Source: a virus | Length of the DNA stretch: 45,423 nt | IMG/VR virus record: IMGVR_UViG_3300025292_000005 | Coordinates: 1 to 45,423 of that record | Direction: 5' to 3' (one strand) | Shown here: positions 1 through 45,423 of the stretch, in pieces | How the letters are laid out: every line of letters begins with the position of its first letter | Numbering within the stretch: the first letter of the stretch is position 1 | Position numbers and translations under genes: made by a program | The notes under the pieces: model-generated | The model's input: only the letters and a program-made list of their open reading frames with translations | What the model was told of the DNA's origin: nothing | Databases searched by the model: none

Positions 1-127
1 ATCGTTCTGATGTCAAGCGGCCGGACGTCCGAACTCTTGGTCAGGCTTTCGACGCTCTTTGCAACCCCGCGCGCCTGGCAGTTCCCAATTACCCAGATGG
101 TCATGCGTCAAGCGCCTCTTCATCGCA
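1..127. repeat. Terminal direct repeat copy 1 (identical to 45297..45423)
   Basis: Letter-for-letter identity read from the sequence. It lies inside coding sequence and joins two ORFs seamlessly. Confidence 0.9.
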
Positions 128-1144
128 CACGACCGCTTCGATACTACGCATCTCCTGCTCTGCCTCGCGGACATCGACCGGCCTGGGGCGCGGCGAGGCG
201 GTTGCCGCTTCAGACGGCGAGAAGAAGTGACGACCGAAAATCCTCATGACGTGAGCAACCCCCTCGCTGGTAACCTCCCGAAGATCCTCCGCAAGATAGC
301 GATGACGGGAATGCTGGCCCGTGATGATCTCGTATGATGGGAAGTAAAAGGACTGAGCATCCGCGCGGGTGACATGCTCGGCAACGACCCGCAATGCGGA
401 CTTGCTGTAGGTCGTTGCGACAAGCACATGCTTCTTTTCGTAGGTCGCCACCAGAGGGACCGGTGAAACCGTGAAGATCATTCGAAGCGCCGGGTTAATC
501 GTGCGGACGTAGCGTGTGAAGATACGAAGATCCGCAATCATTTCCCCAACGTCGAAGTTGTGGTATTCGTAGTCGTCGAAACTTTCCGGGCTCCCGGCCA
601 CACCCGGGGCCAACGGAAAGACTGCGCCGTCCAGCTTCGAGCGCCAGCCTTCCGTCAGCCCCAATGTGAAGATAAATACGTCTGCCGTGTCGAACATGGC
701 TCTCACAGCGGCGAGATGGGTGTCTCTATCAGCATGGAGTGATTCGACTGTCGCAAACCCGTCCGGTTCCACCTGTGGACGGAATGGATCGACATATTTC
801 CCGTCTTGTCGGGTCCATACATCATCGATGGGCACGAAAAGACCGTAGGCCCTCTGGAAGAGCTGCACAAGTTGCCGCGGCGTGTAGATGTTACCGAAGC
901 GAGCAGGGAAAACCTGATAGTTCCGATCGGGGTCGCCGTCCTCCGTGACGAGGTAATGATAGCCGCTCGACGAGAGGTTCCGGGCGATGTGCTGCGCGAA
1001 GCAACTGCCAGCGGTCGCGATTCTATCCTGAGGCGAGAGCGTGAAAGGAACCGATACGACAGGATCGACGTCGTCAGGATGGATTGACGCTACCGACTTT
1101 CGCCAATTGGAATAGGGCGGCAAACCTTTATATGGATGGGTCAT
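101..1144 (-). CDS. GSCFA-family protein (SGNH/GDSL-like hydrolase or acyltransferase candidate)
   Basis: 347-aa ORF with the family-naming motif TAGSCFAQHI near the N-terminus. Its TGA stop (101-103) overlaps as ATGA the ATG at 104 (=45400) of the next gene across the circular junction. Confidence 0.8.
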   Translation of the reverse strand: MTHPYKGLPPYSNWRKSVASIHPDDVDPVVSVPFTLSPQDRIATAGSCFAQHIARNLSSSGYHYLVTEDGDPDRNYQVFPARFGNIYTPRQLVQLFQRAYGLFVPIDDVWTRQDGKYVDPFRPQVEPDGFATVESLHADRDTHLAAVRAMFDTADVFIFTLGLTEGWRSKLDGAVFPLAPGVAGSPESFDDYEYHNFDVGEMIADLRIFTRYVRTINPALRMIFTVSPVPLVATYEKKHVLVATTYSKSALRVVAEHVTRADAQSFYFPSYEIITGQHSRHRYLAEDLREVTSEGVAHVMRIFGRHFFSPSEAATASPRPRPVDVREAEQEMRSIEAVVCDEEALDA

Positions 1145-1204
1145 ATGTCACCGAAATATAAAACTGTCGGTGACATTAGACCGGGGCAATGGAAGACGGC
1201 AACC

Positions 1205-1477
1205 CTAGATTTCTCTTGTGGCTTCTTCCAGCACTGCTCGCGCCTGTTCTTCGGTGTCATCCATATCTTCGTGCAGCACGACAGTTTTCCCGTCGATGAT
1301 CCACTTTCGCTCCGCCTTCCGATAGGTTGCCGCGAACTTGTGGGTTCCGTGGTGCATGGAAGCCAAAGCAGCTTTGAAGGCTTCTTCCTGGGTATCGTCC
1401 ACGTCGGCCGGGAGCGTTACATCGTATGCTCCGATCTGCCAGCGCCGTTCATCGATTTTTTTGATATCCATCATCAT
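1205..1477 (-). CDS. Hypothetical protein (90 aa) downstream of the tailspike
   Basis: ATG preceded by AAGGA. Acidic protein on the same strand as the late operon. No recognisable motif. Confidence 0.55.
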   Translation of the reverse strand: MMMDIKKIDERRWQIGAYDVTLPADVDDTQEEAFKAALASMHHGTHKFAATYRKAERKWIIDGKTVVLHEDMDDTEEQARAVLEEATREI

Positions 1478-1489
1478 GGGCTCTATCCT

Positions 1490-3331
1490 TTAGCTAATGC
1501 ACGTGAAGGTGTATACGAACTGGCGCGATGCGCCGGATCGGTTCTCGATTTGGACAACGCCATTGTTGCAACTGATGGTAACTTGGCCATCAACCCCTGT
1601 TGTTCCGGTCAGCACGGAAGTAGAGAGAGCTATCGATGTCCCATTGGTGCCGGCCGCACGGCAAAGATGGGTTCCCGATGCTCGTATTTTCGCCCTTGCC
1701 CATAGCTGGTCCGCACTGGTCGTATCCATTTCAAACACGCCCTCGGTGAGCGAAGGCGGGGTAATGGAAGTAACTGCGTCATCTGCAACTGAGACGGCCC
1801 CTGATCTATACCCAGGCGCCACGACCTCACCCACGTTGGTGACGGTGAAAATGGGGGTCAGATCGGTATTGCTCCGATACCCGATAAACATTGCACCAGC
1901 GCCCCCGCCATGGGATTGGAAGCCGGCTGTTAAAGGCTTCAGCGGCTGTCCTGTGCCTGTCCTCAAGCTGTATCCAAAACTGACCGCACCGGTTTCACCA
2001 GAAATCCCGGAGCCGCCCGCCTGAAAACCTGCCGTGCAGCCATCAGATACATGCGACCGGACGCCGACAGCCTCAGTAACTGCGTTTCCATTGCTGTAGA
2101 TTGTGGCGAGAAGGCCGGTGAGAAGACCGGTAAACCCTGAAGCAGGAGCCGCTTCGGTGAACGCGTACATTGCGCGAAGGTTTCCCCCGCCGCCAAGCGC
2201 CGTTACCGATCCCTTATAAGCACGGATGTCGTGGTTAATGTTGGTCGTATCGGTCGTGAGATGGGCGCTGTACCCCCTGAACTCGGCTTCCGAGCCAACA
2301 ATCCCGTCTGGAAGATGGGCCTCAACATGATAGGCATATTGGCGAGTGCTGCCTGTTACCTGAGTGTTCCCGAAATCTGAGTATTCGTGAACCCTGGCAT
2401 TCCGGTTCGTTTGGATAGTGCTTTCCGCTAAGCTGAAGACCCCGTTTCTAAGAACCTGTCCTGGGAAAGACGTACCGTTGCCAAAGGTGGTGTCCGGCTC
2501 GACTCTCGTCCGGCAGTCGAAGGTCACAGCCTTATCACCGACCGTGAGCGAGCTTGCGACAAGTGCGGAGAAGTCGCCGGACGGAACACCGATCACCCCG
2601 CCCCCAACCGGAAGCGCGTCAATCGCCGCCTGAAACGCCGTCAGCAATGCTCCCGCAGATCCGCCCGAGACAGCCCCGTAATAGGTAACATCGACCGGGC
2701 GGGTAGCCATGGCAAGGTTGCTCTTGGCGGTCAGCTTGTTTGCGAGATCGGAGAGGTTTTGTGCCTTCTGCGCAGCACTATCAGCAAGGGCGAGCGAGGC
2801 TATTGAGGCTGCATTCAGCGCTACCGTGCGGTTTGCGGACAGGTCGCCGCCGCCGGTGAGACCCGTTCCCGCCGTCAACGTGCGAGAGGTCTGGACGGCA
2901 TTGACGATGCGGGTATCGTCGCCGGCCGCTACAGTACCGGCCGTGGTGCCAACATCAAGGGCGGCAGCGTCCCCAAGATCTCCTGGCTGAACGGCGCTGT
3001 CAGCGGTAGCCCCTTGCGCCGCCGTCGCGAATGCGGTGGCATCCTGCGCGGCAGCAGTGCCAAGCGTAGGAAGGTTGCCGAGATCGTTATAATCCCCGCT
3101 GATCCCCGCCGTAGAAACCTGCGCGGTGATCGCCTGCTTGGTGGTCAAAGGCGTCATAGCCTTGGACGGATTTGTCCCCGCCTCTGCTTCGGCTTGAGAG
3201 GCGAGCGGGCGGCCAGTATCCACGAGGGTCTGGATCGTGACCTTCTCGGTTGCCGCTCCGTCTACGGCGACGTTGAGGGTCGCGACCGGAGAGGCGGCCG
3301 TGGGTAATTGGTTAATGCGAATATCCGCCAA
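1490..3331 (-). CDS. Tailspike/tail fibre with pectate-lyase-like beta-helix (depolymerase candidate)
   Basis: The ORF track extends to a GTG at 3427. AGGAGA lies 6 nt upstream of an in-frame TTG at 3331, giving MADIRINQLPTA, a typical fibre N-terminus. The motif VDVTYYGAVSGG..AFQAAIDALP..GGVIGVPSGDF resembles the pectate_lyase_3 entry motif. Confidence 0.75.
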   Translation of the reverse strand: MADIRINQLPTAASPVATLNVAVDGAATEKVTIQTLVDTGRPLASQAEAEAGTNPSKAMTPLTTKQAITAQVSTAGISGDYNDLGNLPTLGTAAAQDATAFATAAQGATADSAVQPGDLGDAAALDVGTTAGTVAAGDDTRIVNAVQTSRTLTAGTGLTGGGDLSANRTVALNAASIASLALADSAAQKAQNLSDLANKLTAKSNLAMATRPVDVTYYGAVSGGSAGALLTAFQAAIDALPVGGGVIGVPSGDFSALVASSLTVGDKAVTFDCRTRVEPDTTFGNGTSFPGQVLRNGVFSLAESTIQTNRNARVHEYSDFGNTQVTGSTRQYAYHVEAHLPDGIVGSEAEFRGYSAHLTTDTTNINHDIRAYKGSVTALGGGGNLRAMYAFTEAAPASGFTGLLTGLLATIYSNGNAVTEAVGVRSHVSDGCTAGFQAGGSGISGETGAVSFGYSLRTGTGQPLKPLTAGFQSHGGGAGAMFIGYRSNTDLTPIFTVTNVGEVVAPGYRSGAVSVADDAVTSITPPSLTEGVFEMDTTSADQLWARAKIRASGTHLCRAAGTNGTSIALSTSVLTGTTGVDGQVTISCNNGVVQIENRSGASRQFVYTFTCIS

Positions 3332-3441
3332 AGTGGATCTCCTATTGATCTGAGAGCCACAACCAGCCAGAATCACGAACGCGCCGAAGGCTTGCAGGCC
3401 GACGACGCGCTCTAACCAAGCCAACACGGACGAGGTGTCAG

Positions 3442-4140
3442 ATGGCTATGAAATTCAAAGCATGTTGTGTTGAAGGTTGCAACAACTGCGCTTCACAAGA
3501 AAGAGGCGGAAGGCGTGGCCTTTGCTCGTCTCATTACTGGCGATGGAAAAGATCTAGACAAGGCTTGAAGAGATGTTCGGTAGGCGGCTGCTCAACTTCA
3601 TCGACGACCAAAGGGATGTGCTCAATGCACTACCACCGGTTTCGGACATTTGGCGATCCGATGAAAGGCCGAACCCCTAACGGAGCCCCTCAGCGATATT
3701 TCGATGAAGTCGTTCTGGTCTACGGCGGCGACGAGTGCTTGATGTGGCCTTACGCGAAGGACAATCAGGGATATGCAAGAATGTTCGACGGAAAACGAAT
3801 GAAAAGCGTCTCCAGAATGGCCTGCGAGAAAGCCAACGGAGAGGCCCCTGATGGGAAGCCTCACGCGGCGCATGCCTGTGGCAATGGGCATTTAGGGTGC
3901 GTTTCTAAGGTGCACATTCGGTGGGCGTCGGTATCCGACAACATGAACGACAAAGTGAAACATGGGACCAGTAACCGCGGAATACGCTGCGCATCTGCAA
4001 AGTTATCAGAACAAGACGTTAAGGACATACGATCGTCTAAAGGCATCCATTCCCAATACGTAATCGCGCATAAGTATGGGATAAACCAATCAACAGTCAG
4101 CGATATCATGACTGGAAAGCTCTGGGCTTGGCTTCCATGA
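3442..4140 (+). CDS. HNH homing endonuclease (free-standing, antisense to the tail genes)
   Basis: 232 aa, with GAGGTG RBS before the ATG. N-terminal repeated C..GC...C..HY.R zinc modules, then HACGNGHLGCV..H..W....DN (His-Me finger). C-terminal HTH-like tail. Confidence 0.8.
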   Translation: MAMKFKACCVEGCNNCASQERGGRRGLCSSHYWRWKRSRQGLKRCSVGGCSTSSTTKGMCSMHYHRFRTFGDPMKGRTPNGAPQRYFDEVVLVYGGDECLMWPYAKDNQGYARMFDGKRMKSVSRMACEKANGEAPDGKPHAAHACGNGHLGCVSKVHIRWASVSDNMNDKVKHGTSNRGIRCASAKLSEQDVKDIRSSKGIHSQYVIAHKYGINQSTVSDIMTGKLWAWLP

Positions 4141-10743: not shown

Positions 10744-11083
10744 AGGCGTCTCTCGACGGACCAAAATGGTTGCGCAGCAGGCCCTCGACCCGCCCGCCAA
10801 GACGCTCCGCCAAGCCAACGACGTGCGCCTGTTCGGTCAGAGCCGTCATTCGTTCGCATCGCAGCTGTTCAAACACGTAATGCCCGACCTCCCGACAGAA
10901 TGACCGTGTCCATCCATGTCCAGCGATCGACACATGGACATCAGCCCCTTCGAACACATTGAAGAGTGCTCCGGCGATGATCTCGCCGTTTTTCTCAATC
11001 CCCATGACTGTGAACGGCGGGACGAATGCCTTTCCAACAGCGCTTGAGACAAACTGCGCGACCCTATCGTCAGAGACGATCAC
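10694..11083 (-). CDS. Small GNAT-like acetyltransferase-fold protein (129 aa)
   Basis: The pattern GIEKNGEIIAGALFNVFEGADVHVSIAG...R....YVFEQLRCERMTA......N.....LAERLGGRVEGLLRNHFG resembles phage GNAT-family proteins. ATGA-type overlap with the nozzle gene. Confidence 0.45.
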   Translation of the reverse strand: MIVSDDRVAQFVSSAVGKAFVPPFTVMGIEKNGEIIAGALFNVFEGADVHVSIAGHGWTRSFCREVGHYVFEQLRCERMTALTEQAHVVGLAERLGGRVEGLLRNHFGPSRDAFIVGILKEDYRFGKTD

Positions 11084-12987
11084 GTTATGACATCCGCAGT
11101 TTCGTAGGTGAGTTCCAGGCGAATAATCTCAGTGTCGAGAGGGATCAGCGATCCACTGGTGATCTGAACGGCAGGCGCCATCACATAGGCGTAGCCGGAA
11201 ACAGAGGTCCAGCTCTGTTGAACTCGCAGGCTCGATGCCTGCCCCCAGACTGCGGCACCCCAAAGGCCAACACCCCATTGCGAACCGCCTTGAACCGGGC
11301 TTGCCGAAGGCGGCGAAGGAAGGTTGACGATGTAATCTTCCGACACAGAAAGCTGCGGCGCGATGTCCTGGGGACCACGGGTGACTGCGCGGGCAATTTT
11401 GGCAATCTTACGAGAACCGGAACTGCCGAAATCGATAAACAACGGCACATACACCGCAGTATATGTCTGGCCCTGATCGAGGCCGGTGATATTTGCCTCG
11501 ACCACCTTCCCGTCAGTGGAGCCGAAGAACAGACGCCCGTTGAAGACCTCAAGGCATGTACCGTTCCAGTTGGTGAACTTTGCCCAGGCTCCGGTTCTGG
11601 CGTTCGCTACATACATTTCCGGCGGCTGCTCATTGACGGTCGGCAGGGCGACGACCACCATTTGGCTTTCCGGCCAAACAATAGCGCTCCAAGGCGTCGA
11701 GCGGCGGAAGGAGACGGCGTCATTCCATGCGGTTTCGATCGGGAAGGAGACGGCAGAAGGCGAGAGGGCCGCTTGATCCCGCTGAATTGCCTGAGAAAGA
11801 GGCACAAAGCCGATATCCGTTGCGATCACCAGATCACCGCCAGCTCTGATCCAAGCATTCGGGCCAAGGGGACGGCCAATCCGATATGTGCCGACCTTAT
11901 TCCAGTTCTCAGCCGACGACGGGTCATTGCCTTGATAGACGGCGACTTCGCCCTGATCGGAGATAAACACGCATTGTTCCGAAAGACCGCCAGACCCGGA
12001 ACTGTCCAAAGACCACGAGGCTCCGAAGAGCAGCTTCCCGCCAAGGGTAAACACCCCACCCAGCGGAAACATTGTTGCCTCTCCGCTGATCTGGTCTACC
12101 GGCAGATACCACGCGTTCATGCTGTCCTTTTCGACAAAGAACAGGCGGTTTTTGTAGACCCAGACGTAATCAAGGTCTTCGGTTTCGACGCCCTCAAAGC
12201 CCGTATAATACGGAACAGCCACGCCATTCACGGTGGCTTCGCCAGCGGTCGAGGTGATGGTCTCGTTATCCTGGAAAGTGCCTACGGCATCCGCCAGATA
12301 AAGCGTCCCGGCCGAGCCATCCGAATCCACATGGGCCACAAACCCTGTCGCACCCGAAGTGCCGCCTGTGACGGTCTCGCCAACCTCGAATGGAGTTACT
12401 TCCGCGTCGAATGCGAGCGTATAGATGCCGTATTGATCAATCGGGAACCAAAGCGATCCGTCATAGATCTGCATCGGGTCCTCGCCGTTGACGATGACGA
12501 GAAAGGTTCCGCCGGTCGTGGCGAACTGCGTATCGACCCAATCGCCACCATTTTGGTCCTCGATCACTTCAAGTCCACTTGTGGACAACTGACCGATATT
12601 GTCTCCCTCGTCAGTGACGATATGGTCGCCTTCATCGGTCGAAAGCGTATAGTTGAATGCCGAGGTGATGACGGTAATGTCGTATACGGTCGTTTCGTTG
12701 GCCGCGAAGAACTTGCGATTGTTGCCGTTGTTGTAGGAAAACAGCGCCGTAACATCGAGATCACCAGCCCCCAAGGTGGCATAGACGGCCGACCCTCTGC
12801 GGATAATGCCCCCAGTTGCCGTGGGGAAGATGTTTTCAAGGACGGTCGCACCTTGAGGCCCAGGCTGGGGCGCGGCGAGGTTCTGGTTTGACAACCAACC
12901 CGCTACGGCGGCCGGGAACGGCATCATAGGGGAAGAGTTAGGCGGCGACGGCCTACGGCGCGCTGGCTGAGCAGGGGCTCTGAACAT
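11080..12987 (-). CDS. Tail nozzle / tail tubular protein B-like
   Basis: About 635 aa, immediately after the adaptor-like gene. The ATG at 12987 overlaps the upstream TGA by 1 nt. The ORF track starts at 13008. Confidence 0.6.
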   Translation of the reverse strand: MFRAPAQPARRRPSPPNSSPMMPFPAAVAGWLSNQNLAAPQPGPQGATVLENIFPTATGGIIRRGSAVYATLGAGDLDVTALFSYNNGNNRKFFAANETTVYDITVITSAFNYTLSTDEGDHIVTDEGDNIGQLSTSGLEVIEDQNGGDWVDTQFATTGGTFLVIVNGEDPMQIYDGSLWFPIDQYGIYTLAFDAEVTPFEVGETVTGGTSGATGFVAHVDSDGSAGTLYLADAVGTFQDNETITSTAGEATVNGVAVPYYTGFEGVETEDLDYVWVYKNRLFFVEKDSMNAWYLPVDQISGEATMFPLGGVFTLGGKLLFGASWSLDSSGSGGLSEQCVFISDQGEVAVYQGNDPSSAENWNKVGTYRIGRPLGPNAWIRAGGDLVIATDIGFVPLSQAIQRDQAALSPSAVSFPIETAWNDAVSFRRSTPWSAIVWPESQMVVVALPTVNEQPPEMYVANARTGAWAKFTNWNGTCLEVFNGRLFFGSTDGKVVEANITGLDQGQTYTAVYVPLFIDFGSSGSRKIAKIARAVTRGPQDIAPQLSVSEDYIVNLPSPPSASPVQGGSQWGVGLWGAAVWGQASSLRVQQSWTSVSGYAYVMAPAVQITSGSLIPLDTEIIRLELTYETADVIT

Positions 12988-13685
12988 CAGCCAAGCTCCC
13001 AGGGCCAAGCGATCGGTATGTTTCCGAAACGAGGAGTCCCCTTGCGGATGACACGGGACCCCTTGTCTCGCGCTGCAGCTTCGCTGAATGCCTTATCGAA
13101 GTTGGCTTGGTCTGCGCCGTATTCGAGGTTCTTCATCTCCCTCCAACGCCAGATAACCCCAAGCGTCAGAAGGCGTTCATCGAGAACGAACGTATCGGTA
13201 TCCGTCGTGAAGGCGAGTTTCGGGGTGCCGGTATTGTCCCGAGCAATGAGATTGGAGACATATGGGAACATCGCGCGGGCGCCACTGGCCGGCGGAGGCG
13301 CAAACTGGAATTGGTCTCCGAATAGCATCCACCAACCAGGAGGTGTAGCCCCCAGATAGAAACCGTTCTGGATCGCAATCCACGTATTCATATCTGGGAC
13401 GTTGGTGTAGTTCCAAAACCAACTTGCACCGTCAGCCATGGCCTGCCCAAGCAGCATACGGTCGTAATCATCCGGCTTATCGAAGGCGGTCGTCGTACCG
13501 TCCCCGGTAAAAGTGTGGATTTTGGTGAGGCCCTGCCAGTCCGCGCTCCCGCATATATCGACGGCCACATCGTTCAGGAGATTGGTCATCTCCGTCTCAA
13601 AGGTGGCCGTCGAAGAAAAGAACGTCGTCGGCTTGCGGCTGATCAGCCTGACCGATGCGTTCTGCAGTGCCGTGAGGGCGCTCAT
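12987..13685 (-). CDS. Head-tail adaptor / tail tubular protein A-like
   Basis: 232 aa, positioned between the capsid block and the nozzle as in T7-like gene order. No independent motif. Confidence 0.45.
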   Translation of the reverse strand: MSALTALQNASVRLISRKPTTFFSSTATFETEMTNLLNDVAVDICGSADWQGLTKIHTFTGDGTTTAFDKPDDYDRMLLGQAMADGASWFWNYTNVPDMNTWIAIQNGFYLGATPPGWWMLFGDQFQFAPPPASGARAMFPYVSNLIARDNTGTPKLAFTTDTDTFVLDERLLTLGVIWRWREMKNLEYGADQANFDKAFSEAAARDKGSRVIRKGTPRFGNIPIAWPWELG

Positions 13686-34685: not shown

Positions 34686-35425
34686 GCGCAGTCGCATCCA
34701 TCGGGCATAATGGACCACCAGAGCCTACCCCCTTCGAGCTTTCGAAGCAAGAGATAACCGATCTCTACGCCGAGGCCAAACTATGGCTGGACGGGGAGCC
34801 CGTCACCACCCAGCAGCAGGCCGACGCACTCAGCACCTTGAAGGACAAAATCAAGAAGGCGGCGAAGACTGCTGACGAAAACCGCAAGCTCGACATCAAG
34901 CCGTATCAGGAGGAAGTAGACGCCATCCAAGCGGCCTATAACGAACTGATCGGCAAGAACAAGAGCGTTACCGGACTCGCTGTCAAGGCTGAGGAAGCTG
35001 TCAACGCCGCCCTGAAGCCGTATCTTCTCGAACTGGACAGGAAGCAGCAAGAAGCCGCCCGCCTCGCCCGCGAGGAAGCCGACCGGAAGCGGGAGGAAGC
35101 CCTTGCCGCCATACGCCAGCGCGACGAGGCCAACCTCGCGGAACGCGAACAAGCCGAATTGCTCGTCAGGCAGGCCAAGGAAGCCGACGAGGCAGCTCGC
35201 AAGGCGGAAGGCGCCAAGGCTCACGCCAAGGGCGAAGGACGCGCCACCGGGCTCCGTACCGTCCACCGCGCCGTCATGACAGACGCCAAGGAAGCTGCGG
35301 CATGGGTATGGGTGACGCGCCGCGACGAGCTGATGGTCTTCATTCAGGACCAAGCCGACAAGGCTGTGCGCGCCGGTACCCGCAAAATCCAGGGGTTCGA
35401 TATCGTTGAGGAGAAGGTGCTGTGA
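34682..35425 (+). CDS. Hypothetical coiled-coil protein (247 aa)
   Basis: N-terminal SIGHNGPPEP motif and a central Glu/Ala/Arg/Lys coiled region. ATG at 34682 in ATGA overlap. Confidence 0.55.
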   Translation: MSAVASIGHNGPPEPTPFELSKQEITDLYAEAKLWLDGEPVTTQQQADALSTLKDKIKKAAKTADENRKLDIKPYQEEVDAIQAAYNELIGKNKSVTGLAVKAEEAVNAALKPYLLELDRKQQEAARLAREEADRKREEALAAIRQRDEANLAEREQAELLVRQAKEADEAARKAEGAKAHAKGEGRATGLRTVHRAVMTDAKEAAAWVWVTRRDELMVFIQDQADKAVRAGTRKIQGFDIVEEKVL

Positions 35426-36360
35426 AGGCCAAGACCATCAAGAAAGTCATAAAGGCCAAGGTCGATGACTGGATTTCCTCCATAGAGGACGAGACGGTCC
35501 GTGGCCTGGCGGCAAAGAACACTGTGGTTACAGGCGGGTGCATCGCATCCATGCTTCTGAACGAGGAGGTCAACGATTTCGACCTCTACTTCACGAACAA
35601 GGAAACGACCGTAGCCGTAGCGAAATATTACGTCAGCCGGTTCCATTCCAAAAACAAGGCTGGGATCGAAGTCCCGATCTATGTTGACCACGATACAGAC
35701 CGAGTTCGGATCGTAGTCAAGTCCGCCGGGATCGCCAGCGAGGAAGGCTCGGAAAAGCCTTATGAGTATTTTGAAGGCCGTCCTGACGACGCGGCCGGCG
35801 AGTATGTCAGCGAAGTTCTCGGCGATGCGGGTGACATAGAGCAGGCTTTGGAAGAAACCACGGAAGCCGCTCTGGCGGTTGATGACGGCAAGCCAAAGTA
35901 TAGGCCGGTGTTCCTGTCTACGAACGCAATCACCCTTAGTCATAAGGTGCAGATCGTCCTTCGCTTCTACGGAAGCGCCGACAAGATCCACGAGAACTAC
36001 GACTACGTGCACTGCACAAATTACTGGACCAATAATGACGATGAGTTGGTCCTGAGGCAGCCGGCCCTTGAAAGCCTTCTGGCGAAAGAACTTCGCTATG
36101 TCGGCAGCAAGTACCCGATTTGCTCCGTCATTCGGCTTCGGAAGTTCATCAAGCGTGGGTGGACCGTCAACGCCGGCCAAATCCTCAAGATGATGCTGCA
36201 GATCAGCGAGTTGGATCTCAAGGACCACGCGGTCCTTCAGGACCAGCTTACCGGCGTGGATGCAGCGTATTTCGTTCAGCTCGTCTCGAAGGTGAAAGAG
36301 AAAGACCCGGAAAAGGTCAACTCCGCTTACCTCGTTGAAATCATAGATCGGATGTTCTGA
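35422..36360 (+). CDS. Pol-beta-superfamily nucleotidyltransferase, CCA-adding/poly(A)-polymerase head-domain-like
   Basis: VVTGGCIASMLLNEEVNDFDLYFT parallels GGxVRDxLLGxxxxDxDhxT. The downstream FLSTNAITL parallels the RRDFTINAL motif. GTG start in GTGA overlap after GAGGAGAAGG. Confidence 0.5.
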   Translation: MKAKTIKKVIKAKVDDWISSIEDETVRGLAAKNTVVTGGCIASMLLNEEVNDFDLYFTNKETTVAVAKYYVSRFHSKNKAGIEVPIYVDHDTDRVRIVVKSAGIASEEGSEKPYEYFEGRPDDAAGEYVSEVLGDAGDIEQALEETTEAALAVDDGKPKYRPVFLSTNAITLSHKVQIVLRFYGSADKIHENYDYVHCTNYWTNNDDELVLRQPALESLLAKELRYVGSKYPICSVIRLRKFIKRGWTVNAGQILKMMLQISELDLKDHAVLQDQLTGVDAAYFVQLVSKVKEKDPEKVNSAYLVEIIDRMF

Positions 36361-39574: not shown

Positions 39575-39948
39575 CGACGCCTCTTGACGAAGCGATATCG
39601 CCAGCCGGGGCCGTTGCCAAGCTTCAGGCGGTCGGCATATCAATATCGGAGCGGACGCTGCGAGAACGAGCCCGCTCCCTTGGAGCCTGCCGGGTTATAG
39701 GCAAGGCGATGTTTCTGATGCCATCTGATCTAGACACAATCATAACCGCCGCAAAGCCGGAGCCCATTTCATGCCAGACGTCTACAAAAGGAAAGGCAGC
39801 GACGTCTGGCAGTTTGAGTTCACTGTGGACGGAGTCCGATACAGACGATCTTCTAAGACGAGTGACCGCCGCCTCGCCGAGGACATCGCGATCAAGGCAG
39901 AAGACAGGGTCCGTCGTGCCGCTGTCCACGGCGCGGAAGCGGTCCTAA
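39571..39948 (+). CDS. Excisionase-like HTH protein (ORF overlaps int by 178 nt)
   Basis: VAKLQAVGISISERTLRERARSLGACRVIGKAMFLMPSDLDTII is HTH-like. ATGA coupling upstream, positioned directly before int. Confidence 0.4.
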   Translation: MTTPLDEAISPAGAVAKLQAVGISISERTLRERARSLGACRVIGKAMFLMPSDLDTIITAAKPEPISCQTSTKGKAATSGSLSSLWTESDTDDLLRRVTAASPRTSRSRQKTGSVVPLSTARKRS

Positions 39949-40736
39949 CCTTCCCCGAAGCCGTTGCTGAATATGTGAACGATGGCAAGAGCGGACGCTT
40001 CACAGCCCCGCTCATCCGGCATTTCCGAAAATGGAAGATGAAGGACATCACCGGCCCCGAAATCCGCAAGGCCGCTAAGATCATATATCCCGACGCTTCG
40101 CCATCGACATGGAACCGACAGGTCATAACCCCGATGCGGGCGATCATCAATCACGTCGCAGAGGCCAAGCGGCTCCCGAAGATATCGGTGACGCGCTTCA
40201 AGGAAGAGACCAAGCGCCGGCCGGCCGGGAATACCGACTGGCTCAAGGCTTTCTCCAAGACGGCTCGGAAGCTCAACATGCCGGAGACCGCGGCACTCGC
40301 CCGGTTCCTGTTCGAGACCGCCACCCGCGTTTCTGAGGCCTGCCGCCTTACGTGGGACGACGTAGACCTGCAGCTCGGCGTGGCATATCTGGAAAAGACA
40401 AAGACGGTTCCGAGGAAGGTTTTCCTGACCCGGGCCATGGTCATCGACCTAGCTAACATCCGAAGCCTTCACCCGACCAGGGTATTCGTCGCCGCCAACC
40501 GATCGACGGTAAAGAAGCGCATTGACAAGGTGATCAAGGAAGCTGGTCTCGTGCGCCTCACAAGCCATGAGCTAGGGCGCCATGGCTTCGCTACGGAGAT
40601 GATCGTGAGGAACGGCGTGGACATTGCCACGACGGCAGATCACGGCGGCTGGAAGTCGCGCAGACTGCTGATGGAGACCTATGTGGAGGGGGATGCGGAT
40701 CGGGAAGTTATCGACCGCGTTTTTGGCAAGAAATGA
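39771..40736 (+). CDS. int: Tyrosine recombinase integrase
   Basis: N-terminus MPDVYKRKGSDVWQFEFTVDGVRYRRSSKT. Catalytic region TATRVSEACRL, SHELGRHGFAT and LLMETYV (R..HxxR..Y). Confidence 0.9.
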   Translation: MPDVYKRKGSDVWQFEFTVDGVRYRRSSKTSDRRLAEDIAIKAEDRVRRAAVHGAEAVLTFPEAVAEYVNDGKSGRFTAPLIRHFRKWKMKDITGPEIRKAAKIIYPDASPSTWNRQVITPMRAIINHVAEAKRLPKISVTRFKEETKRRPAGNTDWLKAFSKTARKLNMPETAALARFLFETATRVSEACRLTWDDVDLQLGVAYLEKTKTVPRKVFLTRAMVIDLANIRSLHPTRVFVAANRSTVKKRIDKVIKEAGLVRLTSHELGRHGFATEMIVRNGVDIATTADHGGWKSRRLLMETYVEGDADREVIDRVFGKK

Positions 40737-40841
40737 CCTCGATGGCACAGCCAAGTCACAGTCACAGTTCCGAAACAAAATTCTTGACAAGAAAAGTGAA
40801 TGGAATCAATTCGGTAGCTGTGGTACAAGAGAATAAGTTAA

Positions 40842-40885
40842 CTCCCTTAGCAGGGGAGCGCCTTCGACCACTCGGCCACCTCTCC
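40842..40885 (-). other. attP core candidate: 5-prime half of tRNA-Ser(GCU) (acceptor 5-prime strand, D-arm, anticodon stem-loop), not a complete tRNA
   Basis: Minus strand reads GGAGAGGTGGCCGAGTGGTCGAAGGCGCTCCCCTGCTAAGGGAG. Similarity stops right after the anticodon stem, with no variable arm, T-arm or 3-prime acceptor following. Confidence 0.7.
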
Positions 40886-43341: not shown

Positions 43342-43513
43342 TGATCGCGTTCCTTTCGCGAAGGACTGTGACGGAGGTCTGGAGAGCGGCAGTTGCCGCA
43401 GCTTGCCGAGCTTCCGATTGGCCGATCCATTTAGCCGGATAGAAGGCAATAGCCGCGCCAAGGACGATTGCTGCCGGGAGCTTGATCACGTCGGGGATAA
43501 GGGAGAGGATCAT
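43169..43513 (-). CDS. i-spanin
   Basis: N-terminal TM (LPAAIVLGAAIAFYPA) with a periplasmic helical domain. ATGA overlap with the endolysin stop. Confidence 0.7.
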   Translation of the reverse strand: MILSLIPDVIKLPAAIVLGAAIAFYPAKWIGQSEARQAAATAALQTSVTVLRERNAINDQVTASDAGALCAALGLSDDETTECMRRMAETTGEPADGGSDTQDRSPVCRAGSKP

Positions 43514-43977
43514 GCTCCCTCCAGGCAGTATTCACGCTCTTTCTGACGGCGCTTGGTGAGCCCCGGAAATCGAATGCCGGCGGCCTTATCCCACTTGAGC
43601 AGCGCGTCACAACCGGCTTTGGTCTCGCCCACGTTGATGAGCTTCACGACACTCGAACCGCAAGCCCCCTTGACACCGACGTTATAGGCGAAGGAAATAA
43701 GCGCTACGTATCGCTTGTCCGGCAGAGGAACCGTGACGCAGCGATCGATGCCCGCAGCGTATTCCTGTAAGGAATCCTCCAGCATCGCCTTGCACTGAGC
43801 GATCGTGTAGTGATCCCCGGGCTGAACGCCTTTGGTCTCGCCGTAGCAGACGGTCCAAGGCGGTCCTTTCGTCGCCGGATCGGGATACGCGTTCTGGCGG
43901 AGGCCTTCAAAGCCACCAACAAGGGTAGCGGCGAGCGCGGCGACGGCCCCGCCCTTCTTCAAGCGACTACTTGGCAT
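43510..43977 (-). CDS. SAR-type endolysin (GH24 / T4-lysozyme family)
   Basis: N-terminal weakly hydrophobic Ala/Gly-rich segment GGAVAALAATLVGG, followed by FEGLRQNAYPDPATKGPPWTVCYGET (Glu-x8-Asp...Thr). Confidence 0.85.
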   Translation of the reverse strand: MPSSRLKKGGAVAALAATLVGGFEGLRQNAYPDPATKGPPWTVCYGETKGVQPGDHYTIAQCKAMLEDSLQEYAAGIDRCVTVPLPDKRYVALISFAYNVGVKGACGSSVVKLINVGETKAGCDALLKWDKAAGIRFPGLTKRRQKEREYCLEGA

Positions 43978-44167
43978 CGAGATTTCCTTGAGCGATGATT
44001 CTGGCTAGGGGAGAGATCATGAGAAAGACGATCGACAGCCAATTCGGTATCCAGGCGTCGAGATATGGGACGATGTACGGAGCCAGTTCCAACAGACCGG
44101 CCAGATAGACGCACCACATGGACAAAGAGCGCGCGAGGACGCGCCCCGGTCGGCTGATGATGTTCAT
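43967..44167 (-). CDS. Holin/pinholin candidate (66 aa, two TM)
   Basis: Two hydrophobic helices, positioned directly upstream of and overlapping the endolysin gene. GGAGAAAAGC RBS. Confidence 0.55.
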   Translation of the reverse strand: MNIISRPGRVLARSLSMWCVYLAGLLELAPYIVPYLDAWIPNWLSIVFLMISPLARIIAQGNLDAK

Positions 44168-44240: not shown

Positions 44241-44264
44241 GAAAAAGGCCCGCCGAAGCGAGCC
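44241..44264 (-). terminator. Intrinsic terminator ending the late/accessory operon
   Basis: Minus strand reads GGCUCGC-UUCG-GCGGGCC followed by UUUUUC. The G-U pair forms only in the minus-strand RNA. Confidence 0.65.
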
Positions 44265-44329
44265 TTTCTATTGTTCTCTATGTGGTGACTTAGCGACCGG
44301 TGAAGCCGATCGTCGGCAAGCCATTCCGC

Positions 44330-44527
44330 TTAATCATAAACCGGGACCATTTTTCTGACCTCTGCCTTAGAGATCTGCCGTCCGTTGGGTACGTTCGCTG
44401 CGACCCATTCATTGAAGCAGTGAGGGCACATAACCTCTTCATTTTCCTTGAGCGGAGAGGCATCTGCCACGAACTCGTGACCCTTCTCACACCTGAACGT
44501 CGCGACATATGGAACTTGATAGCTCAT
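44330..44527 (-). CDS. Small zinc-ribbon-like protein (65 aa)
   Basis: FRCEKGHEF......VMCPHCFNEW. AAGAGGTAAGG RBS. Confidence 0.55.
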   Translation of the reverse strand: MSYQVPYVATFRCEKGHEFVADASPLKENEEVMCPHCFNEWVAANVPNGRQISKAEVRKMVPVYD

Positions 44528-44542
44528 CCCTTACCTCTTTAG

Positions 44543-45400
44543 CTAGGCGGCTTTTGGTTTGATCAATTCGCGCTGGATGAATTCGCGGGCTTTATCGACC
44601 CGGATCGCTTCGTATCCATCCGACAGAATTCCGTAGCTGTCATAGGATTGCGCCACAAATTCCTGAAGATCGATGATCTCTCCGGCCCTTATCTGGAAAT
44701 CGAAGTTTCCAGCAATGTCATTCGAGATGCCGGGATAGACGGGCCATACGACGCCCTCGCCTAGCTCGTCGGGCGGGCAACCCGCATCACTATGAGTGGG
44801 AACGCCAGCCATATTAAGGGCCTGTTTCGCTACTTCGAAAAGTAGCTCAACCCAGGGGTGATTGATAGTATGCATGAATACCCCCCGAGAAAGAGCTTCG
44901 GAGTGATCGTGCCCGGCCTCGGCCATATGCTTTTTCAGGATCGGCAGCGTTGCGTCATATACACCTCGCAGGCCGAGAGACGCATACGTGAATCTGTTGA
45001 ACAAGGCGCATGCCCGCTGCTGACTTAGCCCCTCAAGATAAGCCGCCGCGACGATCGACGAGTGATAAGAGAACAAGGCCCCGTTTATATAGACCCCGTT
45101 GCACTTGATGTAGCAAAGATCGGGATGAAAACCGGCGAATCCGAATGATGGGAATGCCACCGCCCTGTAGCCGGAGGCGCGAAGCCTCTCGATAGAAAAG
45201 GGGCCAGCATGGTCGTCTGGCTTCTGGATCAGCAGAATGTCCGACCGGCTGACCTGTGAAGCCAGATTGGCCTTGCCCGCGTCGTCGGCCTGCATGATCG
45301 TTCTGATGTCAAGCGGCCGGACGTCCGAACTCTTGGTCAGGCTTTCGACGCTCTTTGCAACCCCGCGCGCCTGGCAGTTCCCAATTACCCAGATGGTCAT
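44543..45400 (-). CDS. WcbI-like polysaccharide-modification protein (putative acetyltransferase-like)
   Basis: N-terminal MTIWVIGNCQARGVA (GNCQ motif) and a size of about 285 aa resemble the WcbI family. Its start is ATGA-coupled to the GSCFA gene across the junction. Confidence 0.5.
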   Translation of the reverse strand: MTIWVIGNCQARGVAKSVESLTKSSDVRPLDIRTIMQADDAGKANLASQVSRSDILLIQKPDDHAGPFSIERLRASGYRAVAFPSFGFAGFHPDLCYIKCNGVYINGALFSYHSSIVAAAYLEGLSQQRACALFNRFTYASLGLRGVYDATLPILKKHMAEAGHDHSEALSRGVFMHTINHPWVELLFEVAKQALNMAGVPTHSDAGCPPDELGEGVVWPVYPGISNDIAGNFDFQIRAGEIIDLQEFVAQSYDSYGILSDGYEAIRVDKAREFIQRELIKPKAA

Positions 45401-45423
45401 GCGTCAAGCGCCTCTTCATCGCA
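45297..45423. repeat. Terminal direct repeat copy 2 (identical to 1..127)
   Basis: Letter-for-letter identity. Confidence 0.9.

Follow-up and report, generated by a model that had tools for sequence, protein, structure and literature searches.

What use does a temperate phage have for a GSCFA-family gene and a WcbI-family gene placed behind its receptor-binding genes? The question is raised by the IMG/VR virus record IMGVR_UViG_3300025292_000005, of which positions 1 to 45,423 were analysed; this whole stretch of 45,423 nucleotides (nt) is called the window below. The two genes, with products measured in amino acids (aa), lie on its minus strand:

101..1144, minus strand: GSCFA-family gene, 347 aa; Pfam PF08885, E=1.8e-51.
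44543..45400, minus strand: WcbI-family gene, 285 aa; Pfam PF18588, E=7e-29.

An earlier note, made from the letters alone, had drawn attention to the GSCFA gene and its WcbI-like neighbour and weighed two roles, seroconversion by O-acetyl editing of surface polysaccharide and a virion-associated deacetylase. We propose, with moderate confidence, that the two products form a soluble, cytoplasmic, two-component O-acyltransferase, dependent on acyl-coenzyme A (acyl-CoA), which serves lysogenic conversion of the receptor glycan.

The first step is the identity of the two proteins. The 347-aa open reading frame (ORF) with the motif AGSCFAQHI, in which the earlier note had recognised a GSCFA enzyme, is matched by the hidden Markov model of that family over model positions 1-237 of 237, at 175.6 bits against a cut-off of 25. 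Within the motif (A45-G-S-C-F-A-Q-H52), residues G46, S47, C48, F49, A50 and Q51 are invariant in 30 homologues; the motif GSCFA is present in 85 of 86 ORFs, and the candidate SGNH residues S47/C48, F83-G84-N85 and E236-x-x-H239 are, as judged from alignment only, invariant or nearly so. Homologues number in the thousands, the closest cellular ones (~60% identical) being found in Alphaproteobacteria. Foldseek places an AlphaFold2 (AF2) model of the protein (predicted local distance difference test, pLDDT, 84) close to the CE3 esterase 2vpt, PatB 7tjb and BT3161 4h08, with probability 1.0 but E values of only about 1e-4 and target template-modelling (TM) scores of about 0.5. On this model the protein is predicted to have an SGNH-type alpha/beta fold, in agreement with the SGNH relationship proposed earlier, and its nearest structures are carbohydrate esterases and the peptidoglycan O-acetyltransferase PatB. 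The C-terminus consists of a flexible linker followed by the tail VVC340DEEALDA; a linker with the ending hh-Cys-[D/E]-E-E-x-L-D recurs, irrespective of the type of partner, in at least 76 of 86 GSCFA proteins and also in PipG of Pseudomonas entomophila. The window protein holds two cysteines only, C48 and C340. This tail appears to be a family-wide feature of GSCFA proteins that was not noted before, and one may speculate that it is a docking peptide or a swinging, acyl-carrying arm.

The second protein is matched by the WcbI family at 101.4 bits (cut-off 29.2) and carries the motifs GNC9Q, FHPD, YHS and MHTINH181P, in which C9 (GNCQ) and H181 (NHP) are invariant in 16 homologues. It is ~36% identical to its nearest cellular homologue and evolves faster than the GSCFA protein. 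A profile of its relatives finds the Burkholderia WcbI structure 4bqn (E=7.6e-10); in the alignment C9 falls on Cys14, and the NHP motif with H181 on the MNHP stretch of WcbI, where His201 is presumed to lie. The AF2 model (pLDDT 94), with an N-terminal four-stranded alpha/beta lobe and a helical C-lobe, has 4bqn_A as its best match in the PDB over the full length (E=7.7e-11, TM 0.67/0.63). WcbI itself is encoded in the capsule cluster of Burkholderia pseudomallei, and its solved structure binds CoA and acetyl-CoA (Vivoli et al. 2013, PMC4104973); there, Cys14 is linked to CoA by a disulfide, and hydrogen bonds connect the acetyl carbonyl with Cys14 and His201 (PMC4104973). WcbI showed no acetyltransferase activity in three assays, and the authors concluded that it 'requires an unidentified partner' presenting the acceptor (PMC4104973). 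Homology between the GSCFA and WcbI-like proteins themselves, considered on account of a shared G-S/N-C motif, was rejected at an hhalign probability of 4%; 4h08 is among the top structural matches of both models, which is a hint only.

Neither protein has a membrane segment or a signal peptide (the hydropathy maximum over 19 residues is 1.3 for GSCFA and 1.0 for WcbI), and both are therefore expected to act in the cytoplasm; Pfam finds no AT3 domain (PF01757) in the pair.

Can a GSCFA protein supply what WcbI lacks? A 2022 review counted GSCFA among five SGNH families without known function or structure, and the earlier note still described the family as uncharacterised; this has become slightly out of date, since PipG was found in 2025 to be genetically needed for O-acetylation (PMC12828459). 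Deleting pipG (GSCFA), its neighbour pipF (SGNH) or pipD abolishes the final O-acetylation of pseudotetraivprolide; pipG is complemented only together with pipF, which is always adjacent to it, and the required residues are Cys47 of PipG, in the GSC motif, and Ser18 and His211 of PipF (PMC12828459). The WcbI-like protein was considered as a PipF homologue and rejected, BLASTP showing no similarity between the two, and an hhalign comparison of WcbI with partners of the GxSH type introduced below covers 35 N-terminal columns only (probability 47%). PipD (SpcZ-like) has no tblastn or blastp match in the window or in the searched fetched loci L001-L114.

An SGNH fold could also point to hydrolysis. 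The pair would then be an esterase or thioesterase that de-acylates cytoplasmic glycan precursors or acyl-CoA, and the glycan would lose a substituent instead of gaining one. The best structural neighbours of the GSCFA model are mostly esterases (CE3, PAF-acetylhydrolase), SGNH is primarily a hydrolase fold (PMC9487903), and FoldSeek and CLEAN likewise suggested hydrolases in the PipFG study (PMC12828459). We nevertheless consider hydrolysis quite unlikely: with pipG deleted the acetyl group is lost, not gained (PMC12828459), WcbI holds the acetyl-CoA thioester next to Cys14/His201 (PMC4104973), SGNH-fold transferases are well established (PMC9487903), and one of them, PatB, is among the top structural matches.

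Do the two proteins belong together? The translational coupling that the earlier note had claimed is masked by the linear layout of the window and becomes visible once the circle is closed, for which the evidence is one further feature:

1..127, no strand: terminal overlap, duplicating the 5' end of the WcbI gene and the 3' end of the GSCFA gene; an assembly signature.

Since positions 1-127 equal 45297-45423 letter for letter, the genome is a closed circle of 45,296 bp, and its junction is read through by 4 independent metagenome contigs (L001-L004). The letters 'TCAT' at 101-104 are the same DNA as 45397-45400, so that the GSCFA stop TGA overlaps the WcbI start ATG (ATGA), and the claimed coupling is therefore real.

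The association extends far beyond this phage. A scan of genomes with a GSCFA profile, with one genome per species, gave at least 587 confirmed matches, of which the best 80 were analysed; these are the best-scoring relatives and not a random sample, and in the fetched loci both the ORFs called and the partner classes assigned are approximate. In 21 of these 80 species loci WcbI forms the N-terminal part of a fusion with GSCFA, and in a further 17-19 it is adjacent on the same strand, downstream or upstream of GSCFA. The pair is thus adjacent or fused in 38-40 of the 80 genome loci and in 7 of 22 viral loci. Pfam confirms both domains in the fusions, among them a 655-aa protein of Sphingobium sp. 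CR28 (L067), one of Sporomusa rhizae and those of two prophage contigs. At least 22 of the 80 loci have, instead of WcbI, an adjacent partner of ~230-290 aa with an hh-G-x-S-H start and a [DE]-x-x-H-M-N end; by these motifs this GxSH partner is predicted to be a canonical (PipF-like) SGNH protein. About 20 loci were left unclassified by our crude criteria, several of them visibly with a GxSH-type partner. Taken together, the fusions, the conserved adjacency in either order and the translational coupling argue for a physical and functional partnership of WcbI with GSCFA; a literature search found no paper linking the two. The earlier note had treated them as separate enzymes, and here we depart from it: natural fusions, the genetics of PipFG and the inactivity of WcbI alone point to two halves of one acyltransferase.

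Several loci show further arrangements of the two families. A Stagnimonas metagenome-assembled genome (L074 3508-7053) encodes one 1181-aa FkbM methyltransferase-WcbI-GSCFA protein, which would be a glycan-decorating enzyme. In Falsiroseomonas ponticola (L117 3382-8888), a stretch of under 6 kb contains three GSCFA genes with a separate partner for each (two WcbI, one 260-aa protein), and a polysaccharide pyruvyl transferase gene is nearby; this trio suggests that the specificities of the pairs have diversified. In Methylorubrum extorquens (L115/L116 8001-8996), a WcbI-family gene has no GSCFA gene within 8 kb.

What, then, would the pair acylate? For 40 cellular WcbI-type pairs we surveyed the four closest neighbours, two to either side (135 proteins in all), and found them rich in enzymes of 6-deoxy-sugar synthesis (GDP-mannose dehydratase/epimerase/RmlD, 6), as well as in glycosyltransferases, methyltransferases, ATP-binding cassette (ABC) transporters and Wza-type exporters. 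Single loci such as L008 and L010 agree with this survey. Such neighbours fit glycans made in the cytoplasm and passed out through ABC transporters, like the Burkholderia capsule. For the pSymB locus of Sinorhizobium meliloti Rm41, which has a GSCFA + GNSH pair beside insertion sequence (IS) elements, no link to a named polysaccharide was found.

Among viruses, the company of the pair is of another kind. A two-pattern scan of IMG/VR returned 22 contigs with GSCFA genes; a single-protein scan gave no useful match, and the WcbI alignment was too divergent to yield search patterns. Pairs lie beside tail-fibre genes in at least 10 phage contigs of several tail types, and pairs or fusions accompany fibre or spike genes in podo-, Mu-like myo- and lambda-J-type sipho-prophages. 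GSCFA cassettes stand behind a 1127-aa fibre in a Mu-like prophage and behind lambda-J-type fibres in three contigs (L017, L030, L031), and adjoin fibre or spike genes in five more (L013, L018, L019, L021, L022). One of the latter also has a hexapeptide-repeat acetyltransferase gene (L021 9208-9954), two genes past a WcbI-GSCFA fusion and directly behind the tail-fibre genes, whose product is a putative second acyltransferase in the same cargo region. The GSCFA and WcbI proteins have no match in PHROGs, PADLOC or NCBIfam and, like the neighbouring fibre protein of the window, no tblastn match among 50,697 GenBank phage genomes, in line with the earlier note, to whose author no such phage conversion module was known. 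An anti-phage defence system was considered as the nature of the cassette and rejected for lack of a PADLOC match.

The link between the pair and the fibre can be traced in the DNA itself, and involves two more genes:

1490..3427, minus strand: distal tail-fibre gene, 645 aa from the first GTG (613 aa in JGI's call).
1205..1477, minus strand: orf90, 90 aa, acidic, between the fibre and GSCFA genes.

The position behind receptor-binding genes and a 90-aa ORF is thus as the earlier note had it. The window and the 41-kb contig L008 have in common an uninterrupted block of 2.95 kb, 78% identical, which comprises the fibre C-terminus, orf90, GSCFA and WcbI; the block begins within the fibre gene, ~240 codons before its end (window 1490-2176), and ends exactly at the WcbI stop. 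The C-terminal part of the fibre has thus travelled with the acyltransferase pair. L008 retains no more than this fragment of the fibre and has a frameshift in orf90, whereas GSCFA (88% aa identity) and WcbI (75%) are intact; the pair has an ABC-2 permease, methyltransferases and a glycosyltransferase as neighbours there. The ratio of non-synonymous to synonymous substitution rates (dN/dS) is 0.07-0.15 for both genes, and both are under purifying selection.

These observations bear on two rival explanations. The pair could be a selfish or neutral passenger without a role for phage or lysogen, given that the two genes travel jointly between chromosomes, plasmids and phages and sometimes lie beside IS elements. 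Such strong purifying selection, the retention of all catalytic-type residues and the independent placement beside tail-fibre genes in unrelated phage types make a passenger very unlikely. A more substantial rival is an acceptor other than a surface polysaccharide: a small molecule, a peptide or a protein, such as the tail fibre or a host defence or signalling molecule, in which case the cassette would serve fibre maturation, anti-defence or metabolism. It would suit the sole characterised GSCFA system, which acetylates a peptide natural product, and the shared movement of pair, fibre C-terminus and orf90; further points in its favour are the orientation in line with the late operon, where no promoter was detected, and the cellular pairs that lie outside glycan loci. 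We hold it to be unlikely, because the neighbours of WcbI-type pairs are enriched in genes for glycan synthesis and export, a fusion with an FkbM methyltransferase exists, the founding WcbI is a capsule gene, PADLOC finds no match, and the pair is intact both in L008, with its truncated fibre, and in locus L010, from which phage genes are absent.

Two features of the window bear on the life cycle of the phage:

39771-40736, plus strand: tyrosine integrase gene, PF00589.
About 40841-40885, plus strand: attP core, equal to the first 45 nt of a tRNA-Ser(GCU) gene, beside the integrase gene.

By its integrase and attP core, the phage is temperate. The 85.9-kb ENA contig L002 matches the window identically up to 40841 and then continues with a complete tRNA-Ser(GCU) gene (L002 15556-15646) and non-phage DNA; we therefore conclude that the phage integrates at tRNA-Ser. 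Host flanks are present on the contigs ERZ27252043 k141_15084 and ERZ27252035 k141_17797. The carrier is a Perisivirus-like podophage of a probably hyphomicrobial (Rhizobiales) host. Its late genes, on the minus strand from ~21.7 kb down to 1.5 kb, encode a portal (PHROG E=5e-211), a major head protein (PHROG E=1e-112), tail proteins, ejection proteins and two tail fibres, and the late module is collinear with that of the Brucella phages Tb, Pr and Wb (genus Perisivirus). With phage Tb, the major head protein is 77% and the portal 58% identical, and matches extend to the tail proteins, the ejection proteins and the N-terminal ends of the two fibres. The Brucella phages are virulent and lack an integrase, unlike the window phage, and their slot between fibre and lysis genes is without orf90, GSCFA, WcbI and the Zn-ribbon ORF listed below; in Tb the endolysin gene lies 54 nt behind the last tail gene, gp29 (a P22-like spike). 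Because this slot is empty in the collinear phage Tb and filled with orf90, GSCFA, WcbI and the Zn-ribbon ORF in the window, the four genes have the appearance of a cargo ('moron') insertion, in keeping with the moron position that the earlier note had assigned to GSCFA and WcbI.

The second role proposed in the earlier note makes GSCFA a virion-associated deacetylase, which would help the spike to remove O-acetyl groups from its receptor. Phage tail spikes can indeed contain SGNH esterase domains, tail-spike proteins are among the BFVD matches (low TM scores), and the gene is near a fibre gene. Against this, the protein lacks an adaptor or structural domain at its N-terminus, a signal peptide, a membrane segment and any PHROG match, it matches cytoplasmic, chromosomally encoded bacterial enzymes over its full length at ~60% identity, GSCFA is fused to an acetyl-CoA-binding protein in many species, and the pair is kept outside phages; we regard a virion enzyme as extremely improbable. 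The distal fibre was called a beta-helix tailspike in the earlier note, a description that found no confirmation: the protein has no match in Pfam, in PDB sequences or in GenBank phages and weak PHROG tail matches only, and its N-terminus resembles the tail-fibre-like gp28 of Brucella phage Tb, not the P22-like spike gp29.

Seroconversion by O-acetyl editing, the first of the two roles, fits the polysaccharide loci of the cellular relatives, the linkage to fibre genes, the joint movement with the fibre C-terminus and the integration at tRNA-Ser. The simplest reading is receptor editing, in which the lysogen acetylates the glycan recognised by the linked fibre domain. WcbI would be the acetyl-CoA-binding half, its Cys9 and His181 corresponding to Cys14 and His201 of the Burkholderia protein, and GSCFA the SGNH-fold half, which would receive or position the acceptor and complete the transfer; the GSC motif and the invariant Cys on the flexible C-terminal tail are candidates for this last step. 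In the lysogen, the pair would O-acetylate a surface-polysaccharide intermediate before it leaves the cytoplasm, as occurs in O-antigen or capsule pathways that depend on ABC transporters, and the acetylated glycan would present an altered receptor to the neighbouring fibre, leading to lysogenic conversion or superinfection exclusion. Complex formation, acyl donor, acceptor glycan and exclusion phenotype are those elements of the scheme that we infer.

Several observations weigh against such a scheme. The one GSCFA system characterised so far modifies a peptide natural product, requires PipD and has a partner of a different family. Some cellular pairs lie outside obvious glycan loci, for example in Terricaulis (L006), and some WcbI genes are solitary, as in Methylorubrum extorquens, where the gene stands beside lpxD/bamA; with such unpaired members, the family may act in more than one way. 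A promoter scan found no sigma-70-like promoter in the 60-nt gap upstream of the GSCFA gene, and since the gene also lies on the same strand as the late operon, expression may be late-lytic and not lysogenic. The G+C content of the cargo (0.574 for GSCFA, 0.556 for WcbI) equals that of the phage genome (0.574), and there is therefore no compositional sign of recent acquisition. The borders of IMG/VR prophages are predictions and may include host flanks.

A bolder form of the two-component acyltransferase can be envisioned, which we consider possible but doubtful: GSCFA would be the 'unidentified partner' of WcbI, the two would form a thiol acyl relay, and GSCFA with its partners would constitute a widespread, hitherto unrecognised class of receptor-editing cargo. 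In the relay, Cys9/His181 of WcbI would take the acyl group from acyl-CoA and pass it to Cys48 of GSCFA, or to the Cys340 tail as a swinging arm, and from there it would reach a glycan hydroxyl. The wider class would comprise cassettes of GSCFA with WcbI-type or PipF-type partners that travel with tail-fibre genes in temperate phages of hosts building their surface glycans in the cytoplasm.

The cargo locus contains further elements that may govern or terminate its expression. Around the closed circle the gene order is distal fibre, orf90, GSCFA, WcbI (across the junction), a Zn-ribbon ORF, a hairpin and the lysis genes, with the following features in addition to those given above:

1146..1175, minus strand: inverted repeat TGTCACCGA-N12-TCGGTGACA, with perfect 9-bp arms, 2 nt upstream of the GSCFA ATG.
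44330..44527, minus strand: Zn-ribbon-like ORF, 65 aa, 15 nt past the WcbI stop; weak Zn_ribbon matches below the Pfam cut-off.
44244..44267, minus strand: terminator-like hairpin AAAGGCUCGC-UUCG-GCGGGCCUUU followed by UUCAUU, from RNA folding.
43510..44167, minus strand: lysis cassette, with a 66-aa holin-like ORF with a hydrophobic segment and a 155-aa Phage_lysozyme endolysin.

Folded as RNA, the inverted repeat in front of GSCFA reaches -22.4 kcal/mol (z=-3.7) and would cover the ribosome-binding region; it is largely kept in L008 and partly in L010, and could be a translational control element or an operator. The acidic product of orf90, for which no homologues outside this phage lineage were found, is possibly a fibre chaperone. 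The 65-aa Zn-ribbon-like ORF forms an orphan cluster and lies outside the blocks common to the window and L008 or L010; a 65-aa ORF behind the fusion in L021 was considered as its homologue and rejected for want of similarity. The hairpin at 44244-44267 would close the fibre-cargo transcription unit before the lysis cassette, although a consensus terminator scanner did not call it.

Three other genes of the window were seen in passing. Between the two tail-fibre genes, on the opposite strand (3442-4140, plus), lies an HNH-endonuclease-like ORF (PHROG 59, E=7e-19), which may be a homing endonuclease at a recombination junction of the fibre module. In the structural module, a 642-aa protein (11080-13008, minus) matches both PHROG 5107 ('amidase', E=2e-161) and the structural protein gp21 of Brucella phage Tb, and is probably a virion-borne cell-wall hydrolase. 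In the early region, a gene adjoining those for Rad52, SSB and NinB (35422-36360, plus) encodes a 312-aa product with a precomputed Pfam match to PF26128, Gad2, an anti-Gabija protein.

The implications reach beyond a single phage. The recurrent WcbI-GSCFA fusion names a candidate partner for WcbI, a capsule enzyme of the melioidosis pathogen, and the GSCFA family gains a functional context as what appears to be one half of two-component acyltransferases. If the glycan target were confirmed, temperate phages would be seen to edit their receptor by a soluble cytoplasmic acetyltransferase, beyond the membrane AT3 enzymes of Shigella and Salmonella phages, a mechanism suited to hosts whose O-antigens or capsules depend on ABC transporters, many Rhizobiales among them. 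It would also mean that a receptor-binding domain and a 'lock-changing' enzyme move together.

How does the window pair compare with the known systems? The Burkholderia WcbI of capsular polysaccharide CPS-I (4bqn/4bqo), founding member of its family and putative capsule 2-O-acetyltransferase that is inactive alone, shares its Pfam family and fold with the window protein, in which the Cys and His flanking the thioester are conserved. The two are distant, with ~16% identity in the structural alignment and nothing found by pairwise phmmer, and the motif is GSCQ in the one and GNCQ in the other. In the window, WcbI is coupled to GSCFA, to which it is fused in some relatives.

PipG of Pseudomonas entomophila is closer to its counterpart, being 40% identical to the window GSCFA protein (E=2e-64) and having in common with it the GSC motif and the C-terminal Cys-acidic tail. 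PipF/PipG and the window pair also agree in that the GSCFA gene stands beside that of a partner of ~240-290 aa, on which PipG depends. They differ in the partner, PipF being a canonical SGNH protein (GDSH ... DxxH) and the window WcbI having GNCQ and a partly helical fold, and in context: PipFG belong to a cluster for non-ribosomal peptide and polyketide synthesis (NRPS/PKS), whereas the window pair is found in a phage and its cellular relatives in glycan loci.

Lysogenic conversion by O-acetylation is classic, and the oac gene of Shigella phage Sf6 adjoins the tailspike gene. Enzymes of the Sf6 Oac type resemble the window pair as temperate-phage cargo beside a receptor-binding gene, and Sf6 Oac/OacB and Salmonella OafA add O-acetyl groups to a receptor glycan, as is expected of the pair. 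OafA-type enzymes, with an acyl-CoA-handling module and an SGNH module, are likewise two-part. The known phage O-acetylating conversion enzymes are membrane AT3 proteins (PMC8952252, PMC7448272, PMC9558356). Oac, OacB and OafA, as integral-membrane AT3 proteins, acetylate outside the cytoplasm; the window pair, without membrane segment and AT3 domain, must by that token act within it. The phage strategy would be a known one, and the novelty would lie in the previously unrecognised two-part enzyme that carries it out.

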